Shown in pieces: positions 1 to 62,215 of a stretch of 64,000 bases of DNA. Within the stretch, counting starts at the first letter, position 1. The number at the start of each line of letters is the position of its first letter. The stretch spans positions 10,766-74,765 of the IMG/VR virus record IMGVR_UViG_3300035150_000164; one strand, 5' to 3'. Source of the stretch: a virus. The position numbers and the translations under genes are program-made. The notes beneath the pieces are model-generated. The model did no database searches. It saw only the letters and a program-made list of their open reading frames with translations, and was not told the DNA's origin.

Positions 1-34
1 GAAAACTCATGATTCTAAAACGAACTCAAGTTCG

Positions 35-268
35 CTATCTCCTACGCCTAGGTACTGGTCTTTTTTGTTTCTGCCTAGCCTGAGCCTCTTTCTCCATCGT
101 ATATTTTTTATCTACAAATCTTCGCCTTCTTGAATATGGCATATTCATAACAGAGTCATAAGTCTGGCTTTGTCGCTCCATCAAAAAAAAGACCTCCTCC
201 TCTAATGTTTCTTGGAGGCCGATGGGAAGAAAAAACCAGATTGCCCTACGTTCATCTCGCCTTCCCAT
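35..268 (-). CDS. Tail assembly chaperone C-terminal extension (GT-like), probably reached by -1 frameshift at 229-235
   Basis: Lies in the -1 frame of the 202..1077 ORF and overlaps its end across a T TTT TTC heptamer. Confidence 0.65.
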   Translation of the reverse strand: MGRRDERRAIWFFLPIGLQETLEEEVFFLMERQSQTYDSVMNMPYSRRRRFVDKKYTMEKEAQARQKQKRPVPRRRR

Positions 269-1077
269 TCATGCTGGCACTCATCACAGACATATTCAAC
301 TTTTGTATCTACAGAACCCTCTTCGGTTTCAAAAATGTTCCTCAATGCAGATCTATCATTAATAGATAAATCTTTTAGTGCCAAAATAGCATTTTTGTAC
401 TTCTTACTACGATCTAATTTCACACCATTAATAGCATCTACACGAGATAAAAGACCTAGTGTCAGTTGATCTCTCTTCTTTTTCGCCTGTGTCGTCAACC
501 ATTCCTCATCTTCTGTACGGATTACATGCCACTTAACCTCTGTACCACTAGGTAGTGTATCAACTCTCTCCCTTGTCATTCTATCAGGCATCGGAATTAT
601 TTCAATTTCTGATAAATTCAGTGTCATATGCTGTTCTACATTACACTCAGGACACGTAACCTTGCAGTCATAATAATCACCTAGCGATATCCTCCTAATA
701 GCAATTAAGATCGCCATTCTGTCACCTGCTGTAAGTTTATATGCAGCTTTTTTCAAAACACTCTTATCAGTTATACTACCAATACCCTCAAGACAATTCC
801 CTATAACCATATTCAGTCTAGATACAATAGACCCCTTTCCTGCTAAAACATCCTCTTCATGCCCCCTCATCTCTCGAACAACAGACGTAGAATGCAACTC
901 TCCCTCGTGTATATATCCAGCAGGAAGCTCAACAGCCAAACATCCCGGACCTACATCTAGAACATGCCCCTTCGTTCTATCTTGAATAATTTTCTCTTTC
1001 TTTCCAATAACTTCAACCGTTTCATGCTCTTCTTTCATCTTTTTCCTCATTAATTTCAGCAAGTTTTCGTTTTTCAC
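202..1077 (-). CDS. T4 gp26-like baseplate hub / tail assembly chaperone
   Basis: VREMRGHEEDVL, CPEC and CDEC motifs, FFFP near the C-terminus; downstream of the tail genes. Confidence 0.7.
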   Translation of the reverse strand: MKNENLLKLMRKKMKEEHETVEVIGKKEKIIQDRTKGHVLDVGPGCLAVELPAGYIHEGELHSTSVVREMRGHEEDVLAGKGSIVSRLNMVIGNCLEGIGSITDKSVLKKAAYKLTAGDRMAILIAIRRISLGDYYDCKVTCPECNVEQHMTLNLSEIEIIPMPDRMTRERVDTLPSGTEVKWHVIRTEDEEWLTTQAKKKRDQLTLGLLSRVDAINGVKLDRSKKYKNAILALKDLSINDRSALRNIFETEEGSVDTKVEYVCDECQHEWEGEMNVGQSGFFFPSASKKH

Positions 1078-1204
1078 GAACCCTCCGCTCAGAAAATTCC
1101 AAAATCAACATTCGTACCACGTCGCTCACACTTCTACCATCCTCATCACATTGATCTTGAAAACGCTTATAAATTCCACTACGTATCTCTACGTTTAGTC
1201 TCAT
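1022..1204 (-). CDS. Ribbon-helix-helix DNA-binding protein
   Basis: RLNVEI beta strand, then two helices with GRSVSDVVRMLI. Confidence 0.75.
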   Translation of the reverse strand: MRLNVEIRSGIYKRFQDQCDEDGRSVSDVVRMLILEFSERRVREKRKLAEINEEKDERRA

Positions 1205-1231
1205 GAGTAAATATTACTAGATACTTACTCA
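1204..1231. promoter_or_regulatory. Inverted repeat, candidate RHH autoregulatory operator
   Basis: TGAGTAAATAT-N6-ATACTTACTCA (10/11 match) abutting the RHH start codon. Confidence 0.5.
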
Positions 1232-1267
1232 ATTAGCTATTTTTTTCTATCTCATGTAATTTTTTTG

Positions 1268-1334
1268 TTGACAAACCTGTTTTTTAGCCATATCCTATAT
1301 ATAGATAGCCAACAAGATGTTGGCAAAAAAGGAG
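1268..1334 (+). promoter_or_regulatory. Sigma70-type promoter, leader hairpin and SD
   Basis: TTGACA(1268)-17-TATCCT, hairpin GCCAAC-AAGAT-GTTGGC, then AAGGAG. Confidence 0.8.
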
Positions 1335-8255: not shown

Positions 8256-8442
8256 GTAAATTACTAGGCTTACCGTTAAACGTCTCTGCGTTCAATACTT
8301 TCGTAGGTCCACTCCAACTCTCACCCTCTCCAAGCTTTTTATATACCCTACCACATACAGGACACAAAAACTCAACAACTTGTTTACAATCTTCAATACC
8401 CTCAGCCTTTAAAGCCATATCAGCTCTGCATTTACAAATCAT
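8242..8442 (-). CDS. Small zinc-ribbon protein
   Basis: CxC and CPVCG; ATGA overlap with the upstream gene. Confidence 0.55.
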   Translation of the reverse strand: MICKCRADMALKAEGIEDCKQVVEFLCPVCGRVYKKLGEGESWSGPTKVLNAETFNGKPSNLLVEG

Positions 8443-8777
8443 ATTTCCTCTATCCTCGGTCTCAAAACCACCTTAGCCCCCCTTTTGGACTCTACCAATG
8501 AAACGAACTCAAGTTCGTTATGCTCCATAAATCTTTTCTCTACGTGATGCCCTACACTCATCGCATGACGTCCCTCCAGCAACATTACCAGCACTGTCCT
8601 TCCCCTGATAGATCTAACCTCAAACAAACACTTCGAAATCTCTCTTCCCTTTGTCGCTCGCTCACCCATCACCTTTAAAGCCCTAAACACAGATCTCTCT
8701 AATGGTGTAAGTATACGCTCTCTATTCTGAGGCGTATCAGGAATGAATTTCTTTAATCTCTCTGATAATCTTTTCAT
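8439..8777 (-). CDS. Hypothetical protein (contains the palindrome copy at 8504)
   Basis: Co-oriented ORF; NELEFV is encoded by the palindrome. Confidence 0.6.
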   Translation of the reverse strand: MKRLSERLKKFIPDTPQNRERILTPLERSVFRALKVMGERATKGREISKCLFEVRSIRGRTVLVMLLEGRHAMSVGHHVEKRFMEHNELEFVSLVESKRGAKVVLRPRIEEI

Positions 8778-14564: not shown

Positions 14565-17357
14565 CTACCCCTCTGAAGATAAAACTTTTTGACTAAAACG
14601 AAATACAAGAAATTCTGCTGGTTTGTTCGTAGCGACACCAACATCACAGAAAACGATACCCTGATCTACAGTATTCTGTGGATTGTTAGTCCTATCACAA
14701 ATGACAAAATATGATTCTGAAGGAGTTGTACCCGCAAATACTCCAGCCTGATGTTGACCAAGTAAAAACGAACTCACTTGATTTCTAATTCTGTTCCATA
14801 ATGCAGGTCCATTATTTCTAAACAGGTGAACATGAGTAGAATTAAACACTGACTTCTCAACAAACATAAGAGTACGTCTCATCTGGATATACGGAAATTC
14901 TCCTCCAGATGCATCAAGAGTACGCGCACCCCAAACAACCCTTCCAGTGTGAGGCCACTGTACTAAAGCATTAATCTTATCTGTCTTGTAAACTATCCCA
15001 ACCTGTTCAGGAGTCAAATCCAACTCAAGACCAGTAGACCAAGCTAAATTTCCTTTCCCCATACCAGCTGGAGCTTCACCAACATTGTTATCATTGTCTG
15101 TCCTAGCATATACCCCAGCAACATGACCACCACAAGGTATATCCAGATTAACTCCACTTACTGGATCCAAAACCTTAACATGAGGATAATACAAAGCTGC
15201 ATAACTAGACATTTTGTTAAGAGTAAATTTCTTCCAGTTTACAGCTTCCTGATATGTTAACCCATGAGGAACTGTCAAAAGAACGAACTTGTCTTTCATC
15301 AATTCAGCATAATCAACTAAAGCAGCTCCAACCGTTGAATCTGTCTGGAAATCAGCGGCTACCAGTTGCATAAGAGCATCCACTTTTCCAAACGCATAAA
15401 TACCAGCCTGGTCAATAGCAAGAGAAGCATCAATAATATCAGTACTTGATACCGCTGTACCATCTGTTCCTCCTGCCAAAACAGAAGATACAGAAGTAGC
15501 AGGATTCATATAGTAACTAGCCGTTTGAATATAAGCACCAGCAGGTCCTGCACCTGGATTTCCAGAAATAGCCCAAGTAAGATTGACAACTCCAGTTGTA
15601 TAGCTTACTGTATTAACCCCGACTGAATTCAAGCTAAATTTTTGCGGATATCCAGTAGCCTGAGTATCAGATATAGACATATTCCCATTTGCATCATCCT
15701 CAAGTGCAATCGCTGTAGCATAAATACAACCAAATGTAATATCGCTACTAGCAACCGCAGTATCTGAAGACCATGCTGTTACATCCTGTAACGTAAGAGT
15801 GTTAGCAGGTGTACCTGTAATCCCTGTAATCTGCCCAGTAGTATAATCAATAGTAGCACAAGACCCAGCAACACCGTCCCACAGATTACCATCGCCATCA
15901 TCAATAATATGGACCGCTCCAGCTCCAGTAAGAGTCATATCAATCGTAACAGACCCTGGAACAATCGCAGCAGGAACAGATGTGCTACCAGGTGAAACAA
16001 TTGATTCTTCTCCACCTGCATCTGCTGTAGCCGTTCCTATCTTAACTACAGGCTCTATAACTGCATAAATGTCACCCGTTGTCCAAGCAACAGGAGTAGC
16101 TGTCAAAACACCTGTAATACTAGTTGTGTCATTGGCAGTAATAATCGCAGATGCTCCACCTGTGATATTCACTACAATCTTACCTACCAATCCATTTGTC
16201 GTACCAAAATCAGCAGTAGAATCTGTAAGAACAGCATTGTCAGCAGTAGCCGTACCTGTAAACGAAACCAAACCATCCGCCATCTGAAAATCCATACCAA
16301 GTGTCATCTCAAACGGTGCATTAGCAAGAGTATACTCCCACGCCTTTGTAGCTCCATCGTAAGCCACTGGAGGCGTCGAAGTACTTCCCTGTGGTCTCTG
16401 TGTAGCAGTAACAGATTCGTCCGTTACAGCAGTTCCCTGAAGTGTAGGTGGATTAATCCCGTTTCCATAATCAACTACTTCTATCAGATCAGAACCAGAA
16501 CCATCAGCGTTAATAACAGTAGCAACATACGATGGAGATGTAGAATCATCAAATACTAAATCTGCCCATGTCTCTACTGTCGCCCAAGATCTATTTAAAG
16601 CATCTTGGTTTACATCCTCGTCAACAATAACTGTAAACCTTGACCAACTAGCTGTTGCCTGAGTAAGATAGTCGTCGCTGCCCTGAATAATTCTTACCCT
16701 ATAAAAATTACCAGCAGCACCAGGCCAAGCCATCTGAAATCTAAAAATAACATAATTATACGTAGCTAATATGTAATCTGTAGTTCCTGTAAATTGAGAA
16801 GGATCTGTTAGCTCTACATGTATCTCTCCAGTAGATAAATCAATTGTACCAGTTCCTCCGGATGCAGACCCACCAGATGCAGTAGCATCTAAAGTAAGAA
16901 CTCCATCGTCGTCAGAAACGAAAACATTAACTTCAGCTGGTGTTCCCGCATTAGAAAACGTCAAAGAAAACCCAGATGACAAAACTGGAGCATAGTCTAA
17001 CTGCAAATCATATATTCCAGTAGGCTGTACAGTGTTGTCTACCTGTTCATCCTCTACAGATGCTGGAAAATCCCAATAAGCATCATCGGCATCATCGGCA
17101 GTAACACGCACAAAATACAAACGCTGTCCACCGTTAACAAAGAAGGCATATGCCTCATGAGCTGATATGCTATCTGCTGTGAAAGTACCAAATTTAGATG
17201 CCCATTCTGGAAAACTAGTAGAAATAATAGGTTCGTTAACAGGACCCTTGGTGCTAAACCCAATTAATCCCAAATTTGAAGTTGATACGCCAGTTATCGG
17301 ACCAGGACCACTTGATACTTCTTGAATATATACTCCTGGATATGTGTAATCTGTCAT
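14565..17357 (-). CDS. Tail sheath protein with large beta-rich insertions
   Basis: YPGVYIQEV, GFSTKGP, AFFVNGG, YAALYYPH, VWGARTL, CDRTNN, KPAEF. Confidence 0.95.
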   Translation of the reverse strand: MTDYTYPGVYIQEVSSGPGPITGVSTSNLGLIGFSTKGPVNEPIISTSFPEWASKFGTFTADSISAHEAYAFFVNGGQRLYFVRVTADDADDAYWDFPASVEDEQVDNTVQPTGIYDLQLDYAPVLSSGFSLTFSNAGTPAEVNVFVSDDDGVLTLDATASGGSASGGTGTIDLSTGEIHVELTDPSQFTGTTDYILATYNYVIFRFQMAWPGAAGNFYRVRIIQGSDDYLTQATASWSRFTVIVDEDVNQDALNRSWATVETWADLVFDDSTSPSYVATVINADGSGSDLIEVVDYGNGINPPTLQGTAVTDESVTATQRPQGSTSTPPVAYDGATKAWEYTLANAPFEMTLGMDFQMADGLVSFTGTATADNAVLTDSTADFGTTNGLVGKIVVNITGGASAIITANDTTSITGVLTATPVAWTTGDIYAVIEPVVKIGTATADAGGEESIVSPGSTSVPAAIVPGSVTIDMTLTGAGAVHIIDDGDGNLWDGVAGSCATIDYTTGQITGITGTPANTLTLQDVTAWSSDTAVASSDITFGCIYATAIALEDDANGNMSISDTQATGYPQKFSLNSVGVNTVSYTTGVVNLTWAISGNPGAGPAGAYIQTASYYMNPATSVSSVLAGGTDGTAVSSTDIIDASLAIDQAGIYAFGKVDALMQLVAADFQTDSTVGAALVDYAELMKDKFVLLTVPHGLTYQEAVNWKKFTLNKMSSYAALYYPHVKVLDPVSGVNLDIPCGGHVAGVYARTDNDNNVGEAPAGMGKGNLAWSTGLELDLTPEQVGIVYKTDKINALVQWPHTGRVVWGARTLDASGGEFPYIQMRRTLMFVEKSVFNSTHVHLFRNNGPALWNRIRNQVSSFLLGQHQAGVFAGTTPSESYFVICDRTNNPQNTVDQGIVFCDVGVATNKPAEFLVFRFSQKVLSSEG

Positions 17358-18550: not shown

Positions 18551-18589
18551 CTAAATCTCAACACGAACTTAAGTTCGCATATATTCATA

Positions 18590-19959: not shown

Positions 19960-19983
19960 TCCTTATACGAACTTGAGTTCGCA

Positions 19984-22324: not shown

Positions 22325-22357
22325 CTGTATTCTAACCTAGCGAACTTGAGTTCGCGT

Positions 22358-23221: not shown

Positions 23222-23254
23222 CTTACTCTCCGTAACGAACTTGAGTTCGCATCC

Positions 23255-29744: not shown

Positions 29745-30614
29745 TTACTCCTTGTCGTTAGATTGTGCCTTCATACCAATATATTCAGACACAAGCGCCA
29801 TTGTCCTAGCTCGGTCGGCCAACCTATCATGTGCCTTCGCTACTAATGGCAAATCACCGTCTTGCCCTGACAACTTATCGGCCTTACCAAGCAGACCAAC
29901 TATAGCCTGCGACTCAGCAATCAACGATTCACGTACGGCACTTAAAAACTCTTGTTTCTCACTAAATGAAAGACCCTGGCATTTTGTTATGAATCCAGAG
30001 TATAACTCATTAATAATATTGATAGAATCATATATTTCCTTCTTGAATTCTAATAACCTGTTCTCCGCTAATCTCGAATAATGCGTCTTAGGAACTTGAC
30101 CTTCTATATCTCTAATACGACCATGTAAACTAGTCCTAATCCGCTCAATATTCGCATCATACATCTTGTACCATTCGGAATCTTCACCTGTAGCCTCATT
30201 AATAGATGATACAATATCAGACATCCAATACATCTCATCCTTACGTACAAAGGGAATCAACTCACGAACTTGAGTTCGTATAGCTTCCGTTATACCATTT
30301 CCATTCATAAGCAGATTGGTAATTTTCATCAATTCACCAGCTACATGAAAAGGTATGTTGTCATCCTCAATTACCGGTATCGCCTTAGATGCATTGTTGC
30401 TCTTTATCTCAAGAACTCCGTCTTCATTAATGTAGTACGATATTTTCCTGAGACCTTTATCCTTATCAAAAGCCAAAACATAATCTTCAAACGTTGCAAC
30501 TATATTCAACGGACTATCATATTTAAATTGTACTAGGTGCTTCACCGTATCAAGACGCTTCTCAATGCTATTTTTTTTCGCTTTTTCAATTGCTGAACCT
30601 TGAATAAATGGCAT
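29745..30614 (-). CDS. Hypothetical head morphogenesis protein
   Basis: Directly after the portal; helical. Confidence 0.55.
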   Translation of the reverse strand: MPFIQGSAIEKAKKNSIEKRLDTVKHLVQFKYDSPLNIVATFEDYVLAFDKDKGLRKISYYINEDGVLEIKSNNASKAIPVIEDDNIPFHVAGELMKITNLLMNGNGITEAIRTQVRELIPFVRKDEMYWMSDIVSSINEATGEDSEWYKMYDANIERIRTSLHGRIRDIEGQVPKTHYSRLAENRLLEFKKEIYDSINIINELYSGFITKCQGLSFSEKQEFLSAVRESLIAESQAIVGLLGKADKLSGQDGDLPLVAKAHDRLADRARTMALVSEYIGMKAQSNDKE

Positions 30615-32317: not shown

Positions 32318-32346
32318 ATTTTACCACTCATATTTTCTTTACTCAA
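32318..32346 (-). promoter_or_regulatory. Candidate portal promoter, abutted by the palindrome at 32347
   Basis: TTGAGT-17-TAAAAT. Confidence 0.5.
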
Positions 32347-32585
32347 CGAACTTAAGTTCGCTTACATATCAAAAAAATGGCTCAGGATCATCTCCTTCAG
32401 ATTCCATTTTTTTCATTAAACTAATGAACGATTCATAAGAAATATAATCTTCATTATCACAACTTATACTATTTTCTTCTCTATTAATATATATTTTATC
32501 CTTCAACATCAAAATAGCCTTCATGTGAACTCAAGTTCGTCATGAGTCATATACATTATGACTAAAAATGTATTCATTGTACAGT

Positions 32586-33044: not shown

Positions 33045-33114
33045 GTCCGCACCTATATATCATCTTTCAACTACGAACTTAAGTTCGTTCATATATGATT
33101 CAAGCATATCAAAA

Positions 33115-33975: not shown

Positions 33976-34184
33976 ACGAACTCAAGTTCGCTTCTACATA
34001 AAAAAACTATCATAACATCCTTTTTCAATACCCAAAACGGTCTAGAACCTTCATCGACAGGGATAACGTAAATATCATTATTGTACATAGCATCAACTAC
34101 AAAAAAACCATCCCTTTCATTTATCGTTACAACACAACCTATATCTAATCTATTCTTATCAAAATATTGGATCATCATCACCAA
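33972..34184 (-). CDS. Small hypothetical protein
   Basis: Co-oriented; ends within a palindrome copy (SELEFV). Confidence 0.45.
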   Translation of the reverse strand: MVMMIQYFDKNRLDIGCVVTINERDGFFVVDAMYNNDIYVIPVDEGSRPFWVLKKDVMIVFLCRSELEFV

Positions 34185-38937: not shown

Positions 38938-39044
38938 TGTTATATTCCTTTCGTTTTAGTATAATATATACGAACTCAAGTTCGCCTTGCCTTCCACCAC
39001 AACTATCTTTTATTAAAAATCAATCTGTTTTCTACCCCTCATTT

Positions 39045-40681: not shown

Positions 40682-40695
40682 TATCTACCCACCGA

Positions 40696-40944: not shown

Positions 40945-40993
40945 ATCATTTACTCATTTCTTATAAAAAACTCTATTCATTATATCATTCCTT

Positions 40994-41763: not shown

Positions 41764-41995
41764 AACGTACCATCCGTATACGTGCGCGTGCGCGCCTCTG
41801 TTTCTGCCCCTATTCTACCACCTAAAAACGCCAGAGAGCAAGAGGTGGAGCATGTAACCGGAAAGTATGGATTAAAGTGTGGGATTTACCAATTCTTTCA
41901 TCGGCTCCGCCAGAGTTGCTCAGTATCTGAGTTTTAAACATGTTGCACTATATTTACCGGTTTGTCAACACTTTTTGTATTTTTTAATATCAATT

Positions 41996-42776: not shown

Positions 42777-43014
42777 TACATCTCTCCAATTTCTTTATAC
42801 GCATCCACAACAACGTTGCCAGCTCTACCACTCCAAATATTTTCCATTCCAAAAGTTGTTCCTTTGATCTACTTCTAGGTAAAAGTTCTGAATACATACT
42901 ATATGCCTCATCCACTAATTCCGAATGAACAGCTGTCTTCTTTCCAGGAACACCAATGTCAAGTTGAACCCTTACTTTTTCTCCACATGGCCAATCTTGT
43001 TTACGCTTCGTCAT
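42766..43014 (-). CDS. Hypothetical protein
   Basis: Co-oriented ORF. Confidence 0.5.
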   Translation of the reverse strand: MTKRKQDWPCGEKVRVQLDIGVPGKKTAVHSELVDEAYSMYSELLPRSRSKEQLLEWKIFGVVELATLLWMRIKKLERCNGE

Positions 43015-43017
43015 GAT

Positions 43018-43215
43018 CTAGTTACTCCTATGTCTATTTTTGTATTTTTTTAAACTAATTACATTATCATTATTATTCTTTGGTGGTAAAGCAAATTGCA
43101 AATATGTTTCATCTTCAAATTTGACAACAAGAACACCATCTTTTGTCCATGATTCTATACAAATAGAAAGCCTATCATCTTTATACAGGTACCCATATTT
43201 CTTTCTTTCTTCCAT
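43018..43215 (-). CDS. Hypothetical protein
   Basis: Co-oriented ORF. Confidence 0.5.
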   Translation of the reverse strand: MEERKKYGYLYKDDRLSICIESWTKDGVLVVKFEDETYLQFALPPKNNNDNVISLKKYKNRHRSN

Positions 43216-43227
43216 AGCACCAAAACC

Positions 43228-43512
43228 TTATTTTGCCCCTATAAATCTAGAATCAACATCTTCTATTATCTCATCTACAGCCGAACCAAATGCCTCTTTC
43301 TCAAACACACCAAACTCTTGCTCTTTGCGAAAATTAGCCGCTTCAACAGGATCTGGGTCTGAAATACTAAAATGCTCGTTTTCGTATGCCTCAATCTTAT
43401 CTATTAATTCTTTCCGCTCCTCCCAGTCATCATCACCTGGTCTAGCATTCCAAATTTCATCCATACGACACAAGGCTGCTTCTAAATCTGTATCATTACT
43501 TATTATCCACAT
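43228..43512 (-). CDS. higA: HigA-like antitoxin N-terminal domain lacking the HTH
   Basis: I.ND.D...AL.R...IWNA.PG......L...IEAYE.EHF.I..PDPVEA..FR.EQ; AGGAG SD. Confidence 0.75.
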   Translation of the reverse strand: MWIISNDTDLEAALCRMDEIWNARPGDDDWEERKELIDKIEAYENEHFSISDPDPVEAANFRKEQEFGVFEKEAFGSAVDEIIEDVDSRFIGAK

Positions 43513-43571
43513 CTTTAATCTCTCCTAAAACGAACTTAAGTTCGCGTCTTGTCAAATGATTGCATCTGTAT

Positions 43572-44285
43572 TCAATCTACTTCTCCTGACAAAATCCGAA
43601 AAGCTGTAGCCATGCAGATTGGAACCTGTCCGTTGCCAATGGCTCTAAACCTGTCCATCCTATTGGCCATCCCATCATCCACTCTTGGTTTTCCGGGGTT
43701 GGTTTTCCAAATACTTGCACAGAATTTTGACAACACTTGTGTTTTTGCATAGACTTTGCCGACCAATTTGCTTTTGTCGTTGGAGTATGCAAATAACCAC
43801 CACCTTCTCCTAATATGGTCAGCACCCAAGTCTGACGCTCCAATGGGAGCCCGTAATGTTTTATATCCACAACATTTAAGATCGATTTGTACTGAGCCAA
43901 TCGATGACTCGCTAACATTCTCGGCCAAAATGTAAGCTGGGCATACTTGTCCAATAATTCTAAGCATTTCAACCCACATGTCTCTCGCCGTATTTCGTCC
44001 ATGTGCTGCATTGCTAAATGCTTGGCATGGAAACCCTCCCGATACCACGTCAACAACTCCTCTCCAAGGTCTTCCGTCAAACGTTTCAATGTCCGACCAA
44101 ATAGGGAAGGGGGGCAGGATTCCATCATCTTGTCTCTGTGCCAAAACAGCCGCACAGTAGGCATCACGCTCCACTGCGCAAACTGTTCGCCATCCGAGCA
44201 ACAGTCCTCCAAGGATTCCACCACCGGCACCCGCAAAGAGTGCAAGTTCTCGAAGTCTCTCATCATTACTTTGCTGATCAACCAT
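43572..44285 (-). CDS. C5 DNA cytosine methyltransferase, alpha polypeptide
   Basis: LFAGAGG (I), GGFPCQ (IV), AENV (VI), H.RRR (VIII), RAIGNGQVP (X); no motif IX. Confidence 0.9.
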   Translation of the reverse strand: MVDQQSNDERLRELALFAGAGGGILGGLLLGWRTVCAVERDAYCAAVLAQRQDDGILPPFPIWSDIETFDGRPWRGVVDVVSGGFPCQAFSNAAHGRNTARDMWVEMLRIIGQVCPAYILAENVSESSIGSVQIDLKCCGYKTLRAPIGASDLGADHIRRRWWLFAYSNDKSKLVGKVYAKTQVLSKFCASIWKTNPGKPRVDDGMANRMDRFRAIGNGQVPICMATAFRILSGEVD

Positions 44286-44290
44286 GTCAT
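43577..44290 (-). CDS. Overlapping out-of-frame ORF, likely methyltransferase beta polypeptide (motif IX)
   Basis: 237 open codons over the same span; ends PTPENQEWMMGWPIGWT. Confidence 0.65.
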   Translation of the reverse strand: MTWLISKVMMRDFENLHSLRVPVVESLEDCCSDGEQFAQWSVMPTVRLFWHRDKMMESCPPSLFGRTLKRLTEDLGEELLTWYREGFHAKHLAMQHMDEIRRETCGLKCLELLDKYAQLTFWPRMLASHRLAQYKSILNVVDIKHYGLPLERQTWVLTILGEGGGYLHTPTTKANWSAKSMQKHKCCQNSVQVFGKPTPENQEWMMGWPIGWTGLEPLATDRFQSAWLQLFGFCQEK

Positions 44291-44388
44291 CTTTCCAATC
44301 CTACTAAGTGCTTACACACGAACTTGAGTTCGTCAGTCATAAACTCCTTCTCAACTTCTGATAAAAAACATACCTTGGTACATTAACG

Positions 44389-44754
44389 TTATTGTGTATC
44401 ATATTTAATTCCTCCGCGATTATTATCAAAAACATACCTTGGTGCACCAAAGTCAGCTATAAGCCATCTCTCCAACTCTTCAGCTGTCATCGTTGTATCC
44501 TCTTCGTTTCTCTGAACTGTTGCACCCTGACCTGTTATATCAATAATAATCGGAACTATTCCTGACCTGTAAGCAGCCGCAATACGATGAGAACCCTCAG
44601 CTGCATACCATACACCTTTACTCTCATTCCAAATTGCTCTGATTTTAGGCACCCCAAGCCTCTTCATCTCTTCTGCTACATACTCTAGATGCTCTTGGTC
44701 TGGAAGATTTGGTGCTACAATAACCATACTCTTACTTCTCATTTTACTTGTCAA
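44389..44754 (-). CDS. ParB/Srx N-terminal-like domain protein
   Basis: P.I........Y..EGSHRIAAA...G; no HTH. Confidence 0.65.
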   Translation of the reverse strand: MTSKMRSKSMVIVAPNLPDQEHLEYVAEEMKRLGVPKIRAIWNESKGVWYAAEGSHRIAAAYRSGIVPIIIDITGQGATVQRNEEDTTMTAEELERWLIADFGAPRYVFDNNRGGIKYDTQ

Positions 44755-44833
44755 TTATTCCTCCTTCAGACTCTTGAGACAAACTTGGTCTATTCTTACT
44801 TGTTTGAAATCTTCACAATGATTCAATATGCTC

Positions 44834-45115
44834 CTATTCTAAAGCATCCCTAACAGCATCAAAAAACGTATCAACATCACTCTCTTCTTGTAATCCACGC
44901 CAATAATAATTCCATGCTTCAGTTATCTTTCTAAGAGCAATCATTTCATTACTTTCTATTGTACCTGGTATTGGCTTACCTTTTATCCACCCCTTGTTTT
45001 CTATTCCTCCTAATTCTGCTTGCTGACACGAAAGCATTACATACACACTTCCATCATCACATACTGCAATAAGATTTCCAGCCCCATCATTTGAAATAAT
45101 AATCGGTTTCCTCAT
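44834..45115 (-). CDS. Hypothetical protein
   Basis: LIAVCDDGSVY...PIPG; AAGGAG SD. Confidence 0.55.
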   Translation of the reverse strand: MRKPIIISNDGAGNLIAVCDDGSVYVMLSCQQAELGGIENKGWIKGKPIPGTIESNEMIALRKITEAWNYYWRGLQEESDVDTFFDAVRDALE

Positions 45116-45117
45116 CT

Positions 45118-45567
45118 TTACTCCTTTTCAAGTATCAAAAGTCCACTCTTTGTTAAACCACATCGCTTCCACCCTGCTTTTTTAAAACAATATCCAGGGT
45201 TAATTGATTTGACTTTTTCCGCATTAACATAGGTATAGTGCCGCAAACCAGGCCAGCAGAAATCAGCAATGGCGTCAGCCTGTCTGATAAGGACTGAACT
45301 TTTGATTTTACTTTCGTTCCTGAAAAAACAGCAGTTGACACCTGCTTGTGGTTTTCCTGTCCGCTCATCTATACAACCATCAATAAACTTTCTCCATGCA
45401 AATATTGCATCACACTCCCACGTTCGTAATACAATATGTTCTCCTGGACCAATAAATTGCTTCGATTTACATCCACAACGCCTAGAATAATGACGATCAA
45501 ATAATTCTCTAACATAATCATCACCATCTTTTGTAACCCACCAATAACTTGAATCTCTTCTATTCAT
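45118..45567 (-). CDS. Mom/GNAT-like putative DNA-modification protein
   Basis: RHYSR, FRNE...SS.LI, TYV...K..S.NPGYCFKKAGW. Confidence 0.55.
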   Translation of the reverse strand: MNRRDSSYWWVTKDGDDYVRELFDRHYSRRCGCKSKQFIGPGEHIVLRTWECDAIFAWRKFIDGCIDERTGKPQAGVNCCFFRNESKIKSSVLIRQADAIADFCWPGLRHYTYVNAEKVKSINPGYCFKKAGWKRCGLTKSGLLILEKE

Positions 45568-45654
45568 TTAGAACAAGGAAAATGCCTTTTTTCATCTGCA
45601 TAAAATCCACCATTTTCAACTATCATTTCAGCCCAGAAAAGTTCAAAATTATTG

Positions 45655-46107
45655 TCAACAACCCTTATCATCACAATCAACCTTTGGTATTTCCGACCCA
45701 ATTTCACACTCATCAGTTAACTCTTTCCCTTTTGTCTTGCGCGGCTCAGTCACTGATGGCATCTTTGGAAATTTACTAGGTGGTGGCAAACCTCTTTCAG
45801 ATAAAAAAACTTTACATGATCCTTCTAGTACACCCTTTCGATAGGCCTTAAATAATTTATTTATTTCCAAAAATGCTTCATCTTTAGCAATCTCAGCATG
45901 AGAATCTGCAAGGCAATACCGATCTATCCACTGTTGCGATTCTTCTATAATCTCAGGAACACTGTCAGATGAAATTTCAAACTGCCTATGAATTACCTCT
46001 AAAATACCCTTTCTATAATAGGCCTCAGCTACTTTCCTAATTGCCTTCATAACAATATTACATTGTTCTAAACTGTCTTGTTCTAGATCTTCTTTCATCC
46101 TACTCAT
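45655..46107 (-). CDS. Hypothetical protein
   Basis: GAGGT SD; palindrome immediately upstream. Confidence 0.55.
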   Translation of the reverse strand: MSRMKEDLEQDSLEQCNIVMKAIRKVAEAYYRKGILEVIHRQFEISSDSVPEIIEESQQWIDRYCLADSHAEIAKDEAFLEINKLFKAYRKGVLEGSCKVFLSERGLPPPSKFPKMPSVTEPRKTKGKELTDECEIGSEIPKVDCDDKGC

Positions 46108-46602
46108 TTACCTCATATTCACGAACTTAAGTTCACCTAATCAACTGAACCACAAGAATCATCACCCTCTCTAAGTCTTTTCAACTCATTACGATCCATA
46201 TCAATAAGATGCTCTAACCTAACTTTATTAATACGCATTTTTTCCAACTCCAATAAAGAGTTCGTTATTCTCTCTTGAAGTTCTATTATTCTTTCTAGTT
46301 TGTTCATATAATATCCTCACCCAACCTCAACTAAAACTATATACAGTATACTCTGTAAACATCTTTCCTCATAGTATTTTTTCATCCTTTACCGTATCAA
46401 TCAAAACATAGATGTCTGAACATTACACGGACAAATTGGCTCATTACTGTAGTACCACCCTTCAATTGGAACCATCGGAGACGGAAAATTACTGGTACGA
46501 TCAAAATGCTTTCCGCCAGGGCATACCATTCTGCGGGCATCATCATACGTGTTAGCGAAAACACTCCATAGAAGACGCACACCAAAAGGCTCTCCTGGCA
46601 AC

Positions 46603-46797
46603 TCAACAACTCCCAAAATGAAAAGATATAAATCCTTCTGAATCTTCGTCTTCAATGAACTCAAGATCTTTAAGGCGACTCTTTTCCTCATCAGTAACAA
46701 CAGATGGATCTACAGCTACAAAGAAAACATCATGCGAACAGTTTGTTGGCCACTCATCCTTGTTGTATTTAGAAAATATTTTCATATCATAACCCAA
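46603..46797 (-). CDS. Hypothetical protein
   Basis: Co-oriented ORF. Confidence 0.5.
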   Translation of the reverse strand: MGYDMKIFSKYNKDEWPTNCSHDVFFVAVDPSVVTDEEKSRLKDLEFIEDEDSEGFISFHFGSC

Positions 46798-46826
46798 CCA
46801 ATTCTAAAAACGAACTCAAGTTCGTA

Positions 46827-47075
46827 TCATTTCCTACGCGCTCGTCTCGCTGCCTTGTTGCGTTTTCTCCTCTTTTTCTTCTCCTTTACTTTGGCTGCAA
46901 ATTCCAACAACTTCTTTCCAGACTTAGTACTAGATTCAGCAACACTTTCATCTTTGTCTTTCAAAACTGCCTTAGCATCCTCTACCAAATAATCTGGTAC
47001 CTCTATACAATGCTCCAACCTATCTTTAGGTATATCACCAATATTGCGATATACCTTACCAGTTTCTGTATCCAT
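46827..47075 (-). CDS. Hypothetical basic protein
   Basis: AAGGAG SD; MDTETG start; Arg/Lys-rich tail. Confidence 0.6.
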   Translation of the reverse strand: MDTETGKVYRNIGDIPKDRLEHCIEVPDYLVEDAKAVLKDKDESVAESSTKSGKKLLEFAAKVKEKKKRRKRNKAARRARRK

Positions 47076-47104
47076 CTCTATTCTCCTTCACATTTATGAA
47101 ATAT

Positions 47105-47503
47105 TCAACATGGCCAAAAATAACATAAATCATCTGATTCTGTCCAACCAAGCTTCCCGTAAAAACCCTTGTCCTTGCGCAAAAGATTGCTCCTATGCGC
47201 TGCATGAAACCGATCTTCCCCAAACCACCAAGGAAACTCAACCGAATCTATCGCTACACCTGAAAGAGACATATTGTTGTTGAAACCACGCCTCTTCCAC
47301 TCAATAATCATGACATCCCCATAAACTTGTAAAGCATCTTCGTAACCTACCCACATCTTTACGGCAGGATGCTTGCGCCAACTGTTGTTTGTCCGTATCG
47401 AATTATAGATCTGCCTCGCCTCTACCCTCTGTTTACCAAGACGCCTCCAATCCAATACTTGTGCTGATTTTAAGAAATCTGAATAAGGTAAAAATGTCTG
47501 CAT
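47105..47503 (-). CDS. Pyrimidine dimer DNA glycosylase (endonuclease V / MSMEG_6728-like)
   Basis: MQTFLPY, LD..RLGKQRVEA, HPAVKMW, PWWFG, H..HRSNLLRKD. Confidence 0.85.
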   Translation of the reverse strand: MQTFLPYSDFLKSAQVLDWRRLGKQRVEARQIYNSIRTNNSWRKHPAVKMWVGYEDALQVYGDVMIIEWKRRGFNNNMSLSGVAIDSVEFPWWFGEDRFHAAHRSNLLRKDKGFYGKLGWTESDDLCYFWPC

Positions 47504-47735
47504 TAAATTCCTTCACCTGTCAAAAAACGAACTCAAGTTCGCCTGCCCTTATTCTCCATCCACTCTTTCAGAATCTTATCAACCCGCTCCCTGGCGATGC
47601 TGTCAAGCTCTTCTTTTATTAATACCATCCAGACGACCTCCGATGGACATCTCGCCCATCATTTATAGGTAACTTTACCACCCTTATGGGCAACCGCTTT
47701 CTTTTTTGCCGCCAAGAGTTCCATCACTGCTTATC

Positions 47736-48146
47736 TCAATCCGGATTTCTAAACGACCCTTTTGATACCTTCGTAATCCATTCATCGAGGGCGTCAACAA
47801 GCTCGATATCATTTCGAACGAACCTTTCATTGACTAGAATATCTCCGTTTTTCTTTAGAGCAATTTCGAGCCTCGCTCCATTCTCACCAACAAGAAACAG
47901 TGCCACACTCGCTGGATCTTCATTTGCCCTCAAATCAATCGTTACATCGTTCTCTGACATTTGACTCCTTGCTCGCGCCTTCTCCGAATTACATTCACCA
48001 AACTCTTCATCGTAAGACCGACATCTACCACAAGAGTCAATATGTTTTGCCCTTTCGAAAAAGTCACAGTTCACCCTTCCATTTCTCTCACCGTATCCAC
48101 CGTATTCGCAAACTAAAAGATTCATAATTTTACATCCGTTTTTCAT
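47736..48146 (-). CDS. Hypothetical protein
   Basis: GGAGGAG SD. Confidence 0.55.
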   Translation of the reverse strand: MKNGCKIMNLLVCEYGGYGERNGRVNCDFFERAKHIDSCGRCRSYDEEFGECNSEKARARSQMSENDVTIDLRANEDPASVALFLVGENGARLEIALKKNGDILVNERFVRNDIELVDALDEWITKVSKGSFRNPD

Positions 48147-48205
48147 TATTCTCCTCCATTTACCTCCGCTCAGACTAAAACTCCTACTCTTAATCTATGA
48201 CACAA

Positions 48206-48577
48206 TCACTTACCGCTCCTGCTAACGCTCTCGCTCCCGCGCCCACTCCCGCTCCTGCTACCGATCCCGCTCCTACGCCCGCTCCTACTACCGCTCCATC
48301 TCCTACTCACACTCCATCTCCAGTTCCCGCTACCGCTCCCGCTCCTGCTAACGCTCCAGCCCCCACTCACGCTCCAGCCCCCACTCACGTTCCTGCTACC
48401 GCTTATGCTCCAGCTCCTGCTCCCGTTCCCACTCCAACTCCAACTCACGATCCTGCTCCCACTTCTGCTCCAGTTCTTGCTCCCGTTCCAACTCCAGATC
48501 CAACTCCCGCTACAACTCCCACTCCAACTCCTGCTCCCGCGACCACTCCTGCACCTACGCCTTGATGAAAATATCAT
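48206..48577 (-). CDS. Arg/Ser/Gly/Trp dipeptide-repeat protein 3
   Basis: ATGA overlap with the previous copy; GGAG SD. Confidence 0.6.
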   Translation of the reverse strand: MIFSSRRRCRSGRGSRSWSGSCSGSWIWSWNGSKNWSRSGSRIVSWSWSGNGSRSWSISGSRNVSGGWSVSGGWSVSRSGSGSGNWRWSVSRRWSGSRSGRRSGIGSRSGSGRGSESVSRSGK

Positions 48578-48813
48578 TTTCCGCTCCCGCTCCTGCTTAT
48601 GCTCACGCTCCCACTCACGCTCCTACGCCCACTCCAACTCCTGCTCCCGCTTATGCTCCAACTCCTGCTCTCGTTCCCACTCCCGCTCCAACTCCCATTC
48701 CAATTCCCGCTTCTGCTCCAACTCCAATTACTGCTACAACTCACGCTCCTGCTTATGCTCCCTCCCACGCTCACGCTCACATTCCAACTCCTGCTCCTTG
48801 ATGAAAATATCAT
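48574..48813 (-). CDS. Arg/Ser dipeptide-repeat protein 2
   Basis: ATGA overlap; GGAG SD. Confidence 0.6.
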   Translation of the reverse strand: MIFSSRSRSWNVSVSVGGSISRSVSCSSNWSWSRSGNWNGSWSGSGNESRSWSISGSRSWSGRRSVSGSVSISRSGSGK

Positions 48814-59266: not shown

Positions 59267-59674
59267 CTATTTTCTTAGAATACCACCAGTACGACCAGCC
59301 TGCTTATCAATTTCAATAATCCTAAATTTTATATGATGCATCTTGTCAGTATCTTTCACACCCTTATACATCACACCCATCTGTCCATACCAAACTTCAC
59401 CGTTAGGATATCCGTCTATCTCTGCTATCATACTATCTCTTCGGAATTCACCAACAGTACCAGGCCTAACCGATACAACCTGTGCCCTCGCAAACGGTAC
59501 GCTCTTTCCAGAAAGATCTAGAAATTTTGATGTAAAAATAATCTCCACACCTGGAACATGAGGACAAACATCACCGTACTTCCTGGTACACCCAGTTGCC
59601 CGTCCTTCCATAATCTGTTTTGTCTCAAATCTGTTCAAATCAAACATTTTCATCCTTTCATACAGCGAACTCAA
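59267..59674 (-). CDS. ASCH-like protein
   Basis: IMEG..T.C.R, FARA.V.SV, A..DGY. Confidence 0.55.
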   Translation of the reverse strand: MSSLYERMKMFDLNRFETKQIMEGRATGCTRKYGDVCPHVPGVEIIFTSKFLDLSGKSVPFARAQVVSVRPGTVGEFRRDSMIAEIDGYPNGEVWYGQMGVMYKGVKDTDKMHHIKFRIIEIDKQAGRTGGILRK

Positions 59675-59686
59675 GTTCGTTTCATG

Positions 59687-60070
59687 CTATTTTTCAATCT
59701 TTTTAATCTTCTCAAAAACACGCAAGGGTATTGCTATCCAATCCCTATCTACCCTCGGATCATCTTCTCCACCTTTTATTTCTATACAAAGTGCTGGCTC
59801 ACATTGAGCAGCCTGAGCTTCATCTGTGATCTTCCTCAACCAACTCCATTTTATCGATATACTCGCATGCTTAGTTTGCTTACACTCTACAAGAAATTCT
59901 ACCCCATCTGGTCCATGTACACCTCTAACATCCCCCTTTGAATAGTCGCTAGCCCCTGAACCCTTAACTCTCTTTCCTCCAGTTCTATATGCTATTCGAT
60001 TCTCCTGTGATATTGGAGAACTATCTGTATCCCCAAGATATCTTTTTGGTCTAATTATATTCATTTCCAC
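59687..60070 (-). CDS. Hjc-type PD-(D/E)xK resolvase
   Basis: E...GSGA....KGDV....FLVECKQT. Confidence 0.75.
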   Translation of the reverse strand: MEMNIIRPKRYLGDTDSSPISQENRIAYRTGGKRVKGSGASDYSKGDVRGVHGPDGVEFLVECKQTKHASISIKWSWLRKITDEAQAAQCEPALCIEIKGGEDDPRVDRDWIAIPLRVFEKIKKIEK

Positions 60071-60465
60071 ATTTCAATCAATTTACTTATTTTTTCGTCC
60101 AACCCATGAACAGCTTTTAACAGTACACCCATACTTTCCATCAATGCATCAGAACTCCCAAGTAACTCTGACACTCCGTCAAAAGTAGTCTCTGCCAAAT
60201 CCTTCTCATATTGATCTACCATTAATGCAACATTATCCCATGAATCAGACTTCTCAGCCTTTTCCCTAAGAATCTCCCATCTTCTACGACAAGCTGCCCC
60301 AGTTACGCAAATATCAGGCAATAAACGACCTGCAACAGCATCCCAAGCATTCAGCTCTTTGTAATTCTTATTTTGAGATTTGAAATGCTCAAATATAGGA
60401 GAGCAATCCCCTACAGACTTCTTTAGCAATTCATCGTCTTTTTCTGTCCAACTATGCATCTTCAT
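60061..60465 (-). CDS. Myb-like / RsfA-like DNA-binding protein
   Basis: WTEKDDELL...AWD.VA...TGAACRRRW plus a C-terminal coiled coil. Confidence 0.65.
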   Translation of the reverse strand: MKMHSWTEKDDELLKKSVGDCSPIFEHFKSQNKNYKELNAWDAVAGRLLPDICVTGAACRRRWEILREKAEKSDSWDNVALMVDQYEKDLAETTFDGVSELLGSSDALMESMGVLLKAVHGLDEKISKLIEMWK

Positions 60466-60733
60466 CGTTTTCTTCCTTCACAATAGAAATTATTTTACTA
60501 GCTCGTTTAAGTGCAAAATCCATTGCATCTGTGTTTGAACATTCCAATGGAAACGAGTGATTTTCTCTTTGAAAATTGCATAAACAATTTCCATTATAAT
60601 CAGCATCAAACTCCCTAAAATCGCATTCTATTTGCTTTGAAATACAAAAATAAAAAATAATAGATTTCTTACAATTTGATGGAGAAACTACTACAGCACA
60701 AGCTGTCTTCTCTTTTCTATTAACTCCTCTCAT
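60452..60733 (-). CDS. Hypothetical protein
   Basis: Co-oriented, overlapping ORF. Confidence 0.45.
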   Translation of the reverse strand: MRGVNRKEKTACAVVVSPSNCKKSIIFYFCISKQIECDFREFDADYNGNCLCNFQRENHSFPLECSNTDAMDFALKRASKIISIVKEENDEDA

Positions 60734-60980
60734 TTTTCAACCTATCAACAAAATCTTTCAAAATTTCAGTTATTTCATAAAGCCTATCTATATCAACAGC
60801 CCATCGCTCTGTAGAAAAAACCAAAAAATTTGATGTTCCATTGTTCTCTGTTTTTATTTTCAATTCATGTGTTGTTAAATCAGAACAACAATCTCCATTC
60901 TGAATATATGTAGCACTCATATCAAACAACTCTACATCTTCATCTTCTATCTTTTCTTTCGGATCAAATACTATCTTCAT
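60720..60980 (-). CDS. Hypothetical protein
   Basis: ATGA coupling to the RecA-like gene; STERWA. Confidence 0.55.
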   Translation of the reverse strand: MKIVFDPKEKIEDEDVELFDMSATYIQNGDCCSDLTTHELKIKTENNGTSNFLVFSTERWAVDIDRLYEITEILKDFVDRLKNERS

Positions 60981-62215
60981 TTCACTCCTAACATCTTATC
61001 TAAAATAATCTTACGCATAGTAGCATAAACATCAGGATCCTGAATCCGATCTATAGCATCACCCTTTTTCGTGTACTCTTCATCTCCTACAAACCATTTT
61101 TTCTTAGCTCCTTCTCCATCCGATCTAAACAATCCAAATTTCTCTGACATCGCTAAGAAATATTTCTGTTCATCTATTTTACCTTTTTCTTCTCCTGAAA
61201 CCAACATGGTATAACTACCACGCTGCATAGCAGGAGCTACTCTGCTTTTTTCTGTCTTGAAATTTATCCTTACTCTAGTTCCTATCTCAGACTGAAAAGC
61301 CTTTATCAGATCTTCATCCTGTGTCTCCTTCTCCCATTTTGATGCCCACATTTTTACCGTCAAACTACTAGCAAATACCTGCGCAAGCCCAGCTGGCATT
61401 ACCTTGTTATCTCCCCATGTTACTCCTATTTTCTCTCGTTCCTGATTAATCCAAATTTGAATAGGAAGTTTCCGGTAATATTGAGAAACATAATTCATCG
61501 CACTAGCAGCTTTTCTAACAAAAATACCCATCTTTCTAGCCATCAATCCTTGAGTAGCTTCATACGAACTTTTCTCCAATTCCTCTCTTGGTTCTAAAGC
61601 TGCAATAGAATCCAAAACCAACATATGAACAGCACCCGTTCTTAAAAAATCATCATAAATATCTATAGCCTGCTCTGCTGTATACGGCCTCATATACAAA
61701 AGCCGTCTAGGATCAACACCCAAACAACTAGCCCAACTAGGATCAAATACCTGCTCCACATCTACAAGAGCAGTCCTAAATTCCTCGTAAGAATTTTCCT
61801 CAAGAACTTTCAATCTAGACTTATAATCAGAAACTTTCTCATTCGGATATTGTATTGTCTTGAAAATACCTTCCTTAAAGCAATCACAATATCCTGTCGT
61901 TGAAATTACAACTTCCCCCTCTGCATCTACTTCTTCAACGAACTCAAGTTCACGTGCAGGACGAAAACAATTAGCACACAAATTCTGTGCATTGCCTATC
62001 ACTCTATATGCCGTAGCAGTTTTACCACCACTCTCCTCACCTCTCAATATTGTAATTCTTCCAGCAGGAATACCACCACCAAAAGCACGATCCATTGCAA
62101 GACTTCCTGTTGATACTCTAGGAATATCAGCAACAGTAGATGCCATGCTAATGCAAACATCACCATGCTCTTTTCTGATAGCACTCTTCAAAATATCAAG
62201 TTTCTTGTTTCGCAT
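60977..62215 (-). CDS. recA: RecA/UvsX-like recombinase
   Basis: STGSL.MD.A.GGGIP.GRI...G.ESGGKT, LVLDSIAAL, GLMAR, INQ.REKIGV.WG. Confidence 0.92.
   Translation of the reverse strand: MRNKKLDILKSAIRKEHGDVCISMASTVADIPRVSTGSLAMDRAFGGGIPAGRITILRGEESGGKTATAYRVIGNAQNLCANCFRPARELEFVEEVDAEGEVVISTTGYCDCFKEGIFKTIQYPNEKVSDYKSRLKVLEENSYEEFRTALVDVEQVFDPSWASCLGVDPRRLLYMRPYTAEQAIDIYDDFLRTGAVHMLVLDSIAALEPREELEKSSYEATQGLMARKMGIFVRKAASAMNYVSQYYRKLPIQIWINQEREKIGVTWGDNKVMPAGLAQVFASSLTVKMWASKWEKETQDEDLIKAFQSEIGTRVRINFKTEKSRVAPAMQRGSYTMLVSGEEKGKIDEQKYFLAMSEKFGLFRSDGEGAKKKWFVGDEEYTKKGDAIDRIQDPDVYATMRKIILDKMLGVK

Follow-up and report, generated by a model that had tools for sequence, protein, structure and literature searches.

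Conserved 16-bp palindromes with SOS-box arms form a genome-wide array in an uncultured lineage of T4-like phages

A 64,000-nt stretch of viral DNA (bases 10766-74765 of the 74.8-kb IMG/VR record IMGVR_UViG_3300035150_000164; hereafter the window) carries many dispersed copies of a 16-bp palindrome, RCGAACTYRAGTTCGY, which recurs at orthologous positions in distant relatives of this phage and whose arms and spacing are those of the Firmicute SOS box. The best explanation we can offer, and one we regard as evenly poised, is that the palindromes are LexA (SOS-box) type duplex operators that gate transcription, bound by host LexA, by a phage homologue or by both. The conservation of the sites is observed directly, while the binding partner and the gating effect are inferred.

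Distribution and conservation of the palindrome

The window contains 19 perfect copies, compared with none in each of 100 dinucleotide shuffles, and the full 74.8-kb record contains 20; no other palindrome of 5-4-5 geometry occurs more than twice in this phage. Four copies with one mismatch (32526, 46122, 56402 and 61939) complete the set that an earlier reading of the same DNA by a model (the original prediction) had counted, and a further one-mismatch match at 49968 is probably due to chance. The centres of the perfect copies are likewise as that reading had them (TCAA 7, TTGA 7, TTAA 5, TCGA 0), although the absence of TCGA is not significant (about 2.6 expected by our estimate). Its coordinates, which we retain in the text, mark the first base of the 14-bp core, and the 16-bp block begins one base before. 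Read on the coding strand, a typical site follows a stop codon by 0-12 nt and is followed after 1-8 nt by a Shine-Dalgarno sequence (SD), with the start codon 13-19 nt past the motif; this order of stop, motif, SD and start holds on the minus strand at most copies, bearing out the claim that copies fill short gaps between genes. Copies reported inside coding sequence are there as described (30265, read as RTQVR; 8504 and 33977, read as ELEF; and the one-mismatch copy 61939 within a UvsX-like gene), and the -35 boxes reported just beyond copies 32347 and 56402 were found again, the promoter past 32347 being the weaker (Table 1).

Relatives were found through the major head protein (approximately 60% identity) and through motif scans. 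The resulting five-genome set comprises this phage (G0), the genomes G1 (176 kb), G8 (195 kb) and G9 (157 kb), which are complete with terminal repeats, and a 125-kb fragment, G2. Proteins of G1, G2, G8 and G9 are 30-60% identical to those of this phage, and their G+C content is 51-56% versus 40% here. The motif CGAAC-N4-GTTCG nevertheless occurs 22 times in G1, 28 in G2, 30 in G8 and 26 in G9, with the same arms as in this phage, whereas the next commonest palindrome of the same geometry reaches at most seven copies in the relatives. Among the matches listed by a collection-wide motif scan, unrelated phage genomes containing the 14-mer have a single copy each. Conservation, the lack of which was to have counted against the original prediction, is thus strong across G1, G2, G8 and G9.

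When the motif was masked and translated flanks were compared, 67 of the 126 sites in the five genomes fell into 19 orthologous groups, 10 of which are represented in four or five genomes. At 42 of the 126 sites a stop codon lies within 30 nt on the upstream side and an SD with a start codon 5-40 nt on the downstream side, an arrangement seen at only 1.5-4% of random positions. At the in-gene copy 30265, the codons CGA ACT CAA GTT CGY are identical in all five genomes, whereas two other invariant residues, a Glu next to the copy and a Tyr close by, are encoded by differing codons. At a second in-gene site, a Lys to Gln change in G8 (AAG to CAG) creates the CC centre that is specific to that lineage. 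Orthologous positions, the excess at gene junctions and codon-level conservation within genes together argue that selection is acting on the nucleotides of the sites themselves, and the array looks ancestral to the clade. Conserved sites precede recombination genes and the major-head, sheath and baseplate blocks, and the slot of the one-mismatch copy 56402 is filled in G1, G2, G8 and G9 by a perfect copy upstream of a ParB_N-methylase gene. To what was known of dispersed phage operators, these comparisons add an array, genome-wide and orthologously conserved, that extends to late operons in a T4-like lineage.

A duplex site with LexA-type arms

A profile of the 126 sites, read on the coding strand, delimits a conserved block of exactly 16 bp with two-fold symmetry. 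Position -1 is A at 45 and G at 80 sites, and the complement of position +1 is A at 47 and G at 79 (P = 0.91); the two positions do not covary as a base pair would (29 A..C combinations observed, 28 expected), and positions beyond these carry less than 0.13 bits each. In the spacer, 123 of the 126 sites have T at position 6 and 122 have A at position 9. The centre is neutral with respect to orientation, with TTGA at 45 and TCAA at 42 sites, and TGGA at 7 and TCCA at 13. The last two forms belong to G8, in which the arms are unchanged and 20 of 30 sites are centred on TCCA (13) or TGGA (7) in place of TTGA, TCAA or TTAA; this lineage-wide switch of the central dinucleotide, from CA/TG/TA in the clade to CC/GG in G8, is a second new feature of the array and amounts to a natural experiment in the coevolution of a site and its binder. 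Both sets of centres are closed under reverse complementation, as expected of a strand-symmetric duplex site and not of a specific RNA loop. As RNA, the palindrome would form a 6-bp hairpin of -5.0 to -6.7 kcal/mol, which is part of the local minimum-energy fold at 85 of 126 sites and is followed by a U-rich tail at 5 of 126; covariation is uninformative about this hairpin because the stems never vary. A search of the window against Rfam returned tRNA only and left the palindrome unmatched. The 126-site profile contained no -10 element, -35 element or U-tract at a fixed distance from the sites, and at three conserved places the site lies 7-22 nt upstream of a -35 box. From the profile we conclude, as the original prediction had proposed on the grounds of symmetry and balanced orientation, that the element is a candidate double-stranded DNA site for a homodimer and not an RNA hairpin, terminator or promoter. 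The central CTYRAG and CTCCAG hexamers also resemble the sites of some restriction enzymes.

An intrinsic terminator function was rejected in view of the weak stems and the rarity of U-rich tails; a real terminator in the window, 3' of the major head gene, has -32.7 kcal/mol (Table 1). The SD of the next gene directly follows that terminator, which is therefore probably a partial one that sets an excess of head protein.

The resemblance to the LexA (Cheo) box that the original prediction had pointed out proved to be the key lead. The SOS box of Bacillus subtilis and Staphylococcus aureus is CGAACN4GTTCG (PMC9578287, Table 1), and the arms and spacing of all 126 sites match it. Three of the four well-assembled relatives also encode proteins that match the Pfam family LexA_DNA_bind (PF01726), namely G1 (147 aa, E = 2e-17), G2 (159 aa, E = 7e-22) and G9 (96 aa, E = 7e-10). 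These proteins match Escherichia coli LexA structures (E approximately 3e-11) and consist of the N-terminal winged-helix domain without the S24 peptidase domain. LexA-domain homologues occur in just 75 of 50,697 phage records, mostly in temperate phages of 30-45 kb. The G1 protein was modelled as a symmetric homodimer joined through a parallel C-terminal helix (residues ~86-124), with an interaction prediction score from aligned errors (ipSAE) of 0.44 versus 0.00 for the best of three controls, contacts that agree by at least 73% between runs and a predicted local distance difference test (pLDDT) score of at least 76; the mark used for such models was reached by 21 of 30 true pairs and by none of 23 single chains. 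The model supports dimerisation of the G1 protein. The predicted dimerisation helix is new, as is the repeated capture of LexA DNA-binding domains to which these genes point. We also observed a family of proteins of 84-88 aa (open-frame lengths) that comprise the LexA N-terminal domain only, in small unrelated IMG/VR contigs of 5-31 kb (L293-L303); truncated LexA homologues like gp6 of phage GIL01 may, judging from these sequences, occur more widely among phages than published work indicates.

A candidate host carries the same box. In a search of genome contigs, a 149,931-bp contig in a metagenome-assembled genome (MAG) labelled 'uncultured Dehalococcoidales' was found to encode a LexA-like protein that matches its G9 counterpart at all 75 residues compared. 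The MAG is a GTDB species representative (G022; contigs C2, C66; loci L343, L346, L348). Two of its contigs, of 149,931 bp and 7,671 bp, together make up an essentially complete phage genome of G9 type, which is there by host association or by contamination of the bin. The 7.7-kb contig is 100% identical to G9, and the two phage contigs hold 26 sites. In the 2.6-Mb bin the sole other perfect CGAAC-N4-GTTCG is CGAACTAATGTTCG, which lies in the leader of a full-length lexA gene (207 aa). That leader reads TTGACA-17-TGTTAT, 14 nt, box, GGGAGG, with the ATG 14 nt past the box, so that box, SD and start come in the same order as at the phage junctions. It is thus plausible that a host recognises the same arms and that its LexA acts there after initiation, the link between host and phage being binning alone. 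No host recA was found in the bin, and hence no second operator.

A gating model and its rivals

In the model we favour, a winged-helix protein of the LexA family would sit on each site as a two-fold symmetric dimer, and host LexA and a truncated, non-cleavable phage homologue could each act alone or compete for the sites. The bound dimer would be a gate or roadblock to transcription running through operons and not a block to initiation, and the box in the lexA leader of the bin may act in the same post-initiation manner. Occupancy would then set how far and when transcription extends into the replication and recombination genes and the late structural blocks. With host LexA on the sites, its cleavage would open the gates, the trigger being RecA on single-stranded DNA produced by host damage or by phage replication. 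We propose gating after initiation because promoter signals are lacking at the sites, because the SD directly follows the site and the transcript must therefore already include it, and because of the layout of the lexA leader in the bin and the conserved positions at the heads of gene blocks.

A bolder version, possible but in our view doubtful, is an SOS-gated lytic programme in which a non-temperate, T4-like lineage keeps its replication, recombination and late genes behind 20-30 LexA roadblocks, or enters reversible dormancy without integration. Lytic progress would be licensed by inactivation of LexA, through the SOS signal of the host or through RecA/UvsX filaments arising from replication of the phage itself, and the repeatedly captured non-cleavable LexA DNA-binding domains would be overrides of the gates under phage control. 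If the array is indeed read by LexA-type proteins, large virulent phages of sediment and wetland bacteria would read or override the DNA-damage state of the host genome-wide, which would bear on how uncultured phages time or defer lysis.

Several observations weigh against binding by LexA. Most sites stand at junctions between a stop codon and an SD without promoter elements, which excludes classical operator action. The complete genome G8, with its 30 sites, has no LexA domain detectable with a hidden Markov model (HMM) built from three sequences or with one broadened to 16, so that a phage homologue cannot be what binds the sites throughout the clade; the G8 segment in the slot of the G1 lexA-like gene holds unrelated open reading frames (ORFs) without a Pfam DNA-binding match, and G8 has 110 lineage-specific ORFs in all. 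The contig studied here has no LexA-domain gene either, and it does not cover the region that carries that of G1. Nor was a LexA domain found in the assembled parts of the partial relatives G3, G4, G5 and G11, and a search of viral contigs with the alignment of LexA-like proteins returned no additional members of the clade. The three phage homologues are not clearly orthologous, having different genome positions and unrelated C-termini, and are 68%, ~51-54% and ~45-48% identical to cellular LexA of Myxococcota type but 38-43% identical to each other; their positions, tails and cellular affinities imply that they are accessory genes, probably captured separately, whereas the array is ancestral. 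The lexA promoters of these Myxococcota have boxes of M. xanthus type (a degenerate left half, N4, TGTTCAGTA), which have only the core GAAC-N4-GTTC in common with the phage sites. Bacillus LexA boxes prefer A...T beside the arms, as opposed to the T-NN-A spacer of the phage sites, and the Cheo consensus spacer, which is variable and AT-rich with R at position 6 and Y at position 9, does not fit these sites. Finally, the proposed host is linked to the phage by metagenomic binning alone, and the G+C content of its contig is 58% versus 52% for the phage.

In one rival reading, the sites are bound by a different phage-encoded dimer and resemble the SOS box only by chance; the leading candidate would be a MerR-type protein (Table 1), or else an unrecognised small protein. 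We consider this unlikely. Proteins of the MerR family bind palindromes as dimers and distort the DNA at the centre, a property that could explain the preference for particular central steps. A MerR_1 helix-turn-helix (HTH) is matched in all five genomes (above the Pfam cut-off in four), unlike the LexA-like gene; G8 retains its array without that gene, and the fixed T-NN-A spacer exceeds the published LexA consensus. However, a chance match of a 5-bp arm to the SOS-box arm has a probability of about 1 in 1000, in a clade that also has otherwise rare LexA-domain genes. The MerR-type HTH is the same in G8 and G9 (RSVDTINYWT) and thus does not follow the switch of centre in G8; it lies C-terminally, preceded by a long basic region, unlike in canonical MerR regulators, and no site lies within a 19-bp promoter spacer, where MerR operators are found. 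The main functional rival accepts LexA as the binder and makes the array a decoy or sponge that leaves adjacent genes unaffected, in which hundreds of copies of 20-30 high-affinity boxes in the replicating genome titrate host LexA and derepress or retune the SOS regulon. Every site has perfect consensus arms in place of the graded boxes of a regulon, the sites have no fixed relation to promoters, and coding constraint alone could explain their intergenic placement. We nevertheless hold a decoy to be improbable: the sites keep their positions between deeply diverged genomes, and one in-gene copy persists in all five despite its cost to the protein, which suggests that position matters and that the sites act on neighbouring genes; moreover, a non-cleavable phage LexA would occupy the decoy boxes or restore repression of the host regulon, opposing titration.

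Two further readings place the action of the palindrome in promoters or in RNA. If the sites were to activate middle or late transcription, or to form part of its promoters, they would resemble those of gp6 of GIL01 at promoter P3 (PMC6182141); conserved sites do stand before the major-head, sheath and baseplate blocks, a search of the phage genomes for a sigma factor was negative and the T4-type late promoter TATAAATA showed no enrichment. Yet a symmetric site without an informative flank cannot set direction, and gp6-like activation is highly improbable: transcription would have to begin 34-36 nt past the site, which is already within the next gene, since only 13-19 nt, SD included, separate the site from the start codon. 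The transcribed palindrome might instead be an RNA hairpin, serving as a processing site, a stabiliser or a translational operator. Its place 1-8 nt before the SD at many junctions, its share in minimum-energy folds and the copies that flank tRNA genes in G2 would suit such a role, and as the site is invariably transcribed, immediately before an SD, we leave this reading a very slim probability. Against it stand the weak stem, the scarcity of U-rich tails and the empty Rfam result, the retention of R and Y at -1 and +1 without preference for pairing, and loops that occur as reverse-complement pairs (UUGA/UCAA, and UCCA/UGGA in G8) in equal numbers, which a strand-specific signal would not give.

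Other candidate binders named by the original prediction fared differently. The MerR-type protein at 62866 remains a candidate, but the supposed ribbon-helix-helix (RHH) protein at 1022 is a baseplate protein (ORF 202-1077), the product at 56417 has a weak, below-cut-off match to DUF1016_N and that at 60061 has no family match; searches with MarR_2 and HTH_3 gave no further candidate. A parS/ParB system, also proposed there, was rejected. The geometry of a 16-bp palindrome fits parS or Noc-binding sites (NBS) but does not discriminate, the ORF at 44389-44754 has neither a ParB domain nor another family match, and the ParB_N proteins of G1, G2, G8 and G9 are fusions of ParB_N with N6/N4 DNA methyltransferases, whose genes start ~170-230 nt past a conserved site (in G1 and G8 with a TTGACA promoter between). 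The binder is most likely encoded outside the window or by the host.

Among known systems, the closest anatomical precedent is the 17-bp repeat TGTTCGG-N3-CCGAACA of Cluster O mycobacteriophages, which has 34 copies and for which its authors predicted a dimeric binder and a role other than in transcription initiation (PMC4351075); its function is unexplained. Both arrays have invariant arms, a variable and unoriented centre, places in small intergenic gaps with some copies in genes, and no integrase, and Cluster O also lacks parAB. The Cluster O repeat differs in its sequence and geometry (7-3-7, versus 6-2-6 or 5-4-5 here) and in belonging to a Mycobacterium siphovirus, and no binder family was proposed for it, whereas here the arms are those of a known operator and relatives encode LexA-domain proteins. 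Dispersed operator arrays are thus already known in phages, the symmetric kind being functionally unexplained, and this clade ties one of them to a named regulator family.

The stoperators of Cluster A mycobacteriophages (L5 gp71 type) are dozens of near-identical intergenic repressor sites that are reported to halt elongating RNA polymerase and not to block initiation (PMC9283540). The likeness in placement that the original prediction pointed out stood, with near-identical sites in short intergenic gaps genome-wide and even in late operons. In other respects the two differ: stoperators are asymmetric and oriented, are bound by a monomeric two-domain repressor and serve temperate immunity, unlike the symmetric, orientation-neutral sites here. 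No tyrosine integrase was found in the five genomes (G0, G1, G2, G8 and G9; three complete), and no search was aimed at a repressor family of the stoperator type.

Regulators of the LexA family are nevertheless known to be used by phages. In GIL01, host LexA binds CGAAC(n)4GTTCG boxes, including boxes downstream of the P1 start (PMC4551915, PMC6182141), and gp6, a truncated LexA homologue, activates the late promoter P3 from a palindrome, GaCACAC GTGTGaC, at -43.5 (PMC6182141). The boxes and a LexA homologue with the DNA-binding domain only (here in G1, G2 and G9, not in the window) are common to both. GIL01, however, is a 15-kb temperate tectivirus with few boxes at three promoters, while here 20-30 identical sites lie mostly off promoters, in complete relatives of 157-195 kb; nor do the sites overlap a -35 box with their centre at about -43.5 as at gp6 targets. 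In the virulent Bacillus phages phi29 and Nf, the host regulator Spo0A binds 0A boxes and can suppress transcription and replication, deferring the lytic cycle (PMC2731898), through few boxes at early promoters and origins, with another regulator and no phage homologue, in contrast to the genome-wide junction array here. Bacterial SOS operators have the same arms, spacing and two-fold symmetry as the phage sites, but cellular SOS regulons consist of graded, imperfect promoter boxes with variable spacers, whereas the phage sites have perfect arms, a fixed T-NN-A spacer and a lineage-specific centre and lie mostly within operons.

Other features of the window and its relatives

CheckV puts the completeness of the record at 40%. 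Nearly all genes of the window (G+C content 40%) are on the minus strand, and they encode virion proteins including a contractile tail, together with T4-like core functions; an exonuclease and a baseplate protein are also among them (Table 1). No cultured phage has a major head protein more than 32% identical to that of this phage, and we therefore regard the lineage as uncultured; megablast found no relatives among cultured phages. The sequencing runs listed for this phage are DNA runs labelled as wetland and marine-sediment metagenome, with no RNA run among them. A scan for enriched k-mers gave nothing informative except TTGACAAA, and host-type TTGACAAA promoters mark early units and are mostly unconnected with the palindrome sites.

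Table 1 Palindrome copies and other features of the window (window coordinates)
Feature	Position	Strand	Context
Palindrome, + strand centre TCAA	20..35		Directly 3' of a stop codon; upstream of 1051-aa tail/baseplate gene leaving the window; orthologues in G1, G8, G9
Palindrome, reads ELEF	8503..8518		Within 112-aa ORF 8439-8777; lineage-specific, no orthologous copy found
Tail sheath gene	14565-17357		
Palindrome	18563..18578		39-nt gap before 228-aa gene heading the tail-sheath block; orthologues in G1, G8, G9
Palindrome	19967..19982		33-nt stop-motif-SD-start gap
Palindrome	22340..22355		33-nt gap before 194-aa structural-region gene
Palindrome	23235..23250		33-nt gap before 287-aa gene; orthologues in 5/5 genomes
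Intrinsic terminator	25193-25274	-	3' of major head gene; 13-bp GC-rich stem and U-run, -32.7 kcal/mol for the region
Major head protein gene	25275-26885		
Prohead protease gene	26911-28713		
Palindrome, in gene (RTQVR)	30264..30279		289-aa gene between portal and scaffold/protease/major-head genes
Portal gene	30615-32309		
Palindrome	32346..32361		Upstream of portal gene; then directly weak TTGAGT-17-TAAAAT
One-mismatch copy	32526..32539		TGAACTCAAGTTCG on + strand
Palindrome	33073..33088		Upstream of 152-aa gene
Palindrome, reads ELEF	33976..33991		Overlaps final codons of 70-aa ORF; just before start of 187-aa gene
Large terminase gene	34159-36219		
Palindrome	38970..38985		Accessory small-gene region
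Palindrome	43530..43545		Gap, then SD and start of 94-aa gene
Palindrome	44318..44333		Upstream of ORF 43572-44290
One-mismatch copy	46122..46135		29-nt gap before 150-aa gene
Palindrome	46810..46825		2 nt 3' of a stop codon
Palindrome	47527..47542		Upstream of 132-aa gene
Palindrome	51638..51653		Then SD and start of 134-aa gene
Palindrome pair, 155 bp apart	54232..54247 and 54387..54402		Non-coding stretch before conserved 206-aa gene 53491-54111
One-mismatch copy	56402..56415		Then T-run; TTGACA-17-TAATCT 9 nt on, sigma70-type promoter of gene 55406-56323
Palindrome	59665..59680		Between resolvase-like gene and conserved 135-aa and exonuclease genes; orthologues in 5/5 genomes
UvsX-like recombinase gene	60977-62215		
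One-mismatch copy	61939..61952		Within UvsX-like recombinase gene
MerR-type HTH protein, 197 aa	62866..63459	-	Only recognisable DNA-binding candidate in the window; rival binder

The gene at 55406-56323 (minus strand), behind the consensus TTGACA promoter, encodes an FGE-sulfatase-like protein (formylglycine-generating enzyme family), which PHROGs labels 'kinase', and it occupies the slot of the ParB_N-methylase gene of the relatives. In G1 the ParB_N-methyltransferase gene (L021:11536-13902, minus strand; G1 71.5-73.9 kb) is split by an intein-like insert with weak Hint/intein-splicing and LAGLIDADG matches, and the orthologues in G2, G8 and G9 are uninterrupted (407-454 aa). A small inverted repeat (GGGATTACGATCCC and variants) precedes the site orthologous to 59665 in G1 (78.7 kb), G2 (62.85 kb) and G8 (117.9 kb) and is absent from this phage. 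A tRNA-like gene lies at 52587-52661 (minus strand), with a match to Rfam tRNA at 40 bits and a 4-nt anticodon, ccgt, to which ARAGORN assigns no definite identity. The large terminase gene and the 206-aa gene, only ~0.5-2 kb apart in the relatives, are separated here by ~17 kb of small, mostly unannotated genes (36326-53490), and this inserted accessory region holds 7 of the 19 palindrome copies.

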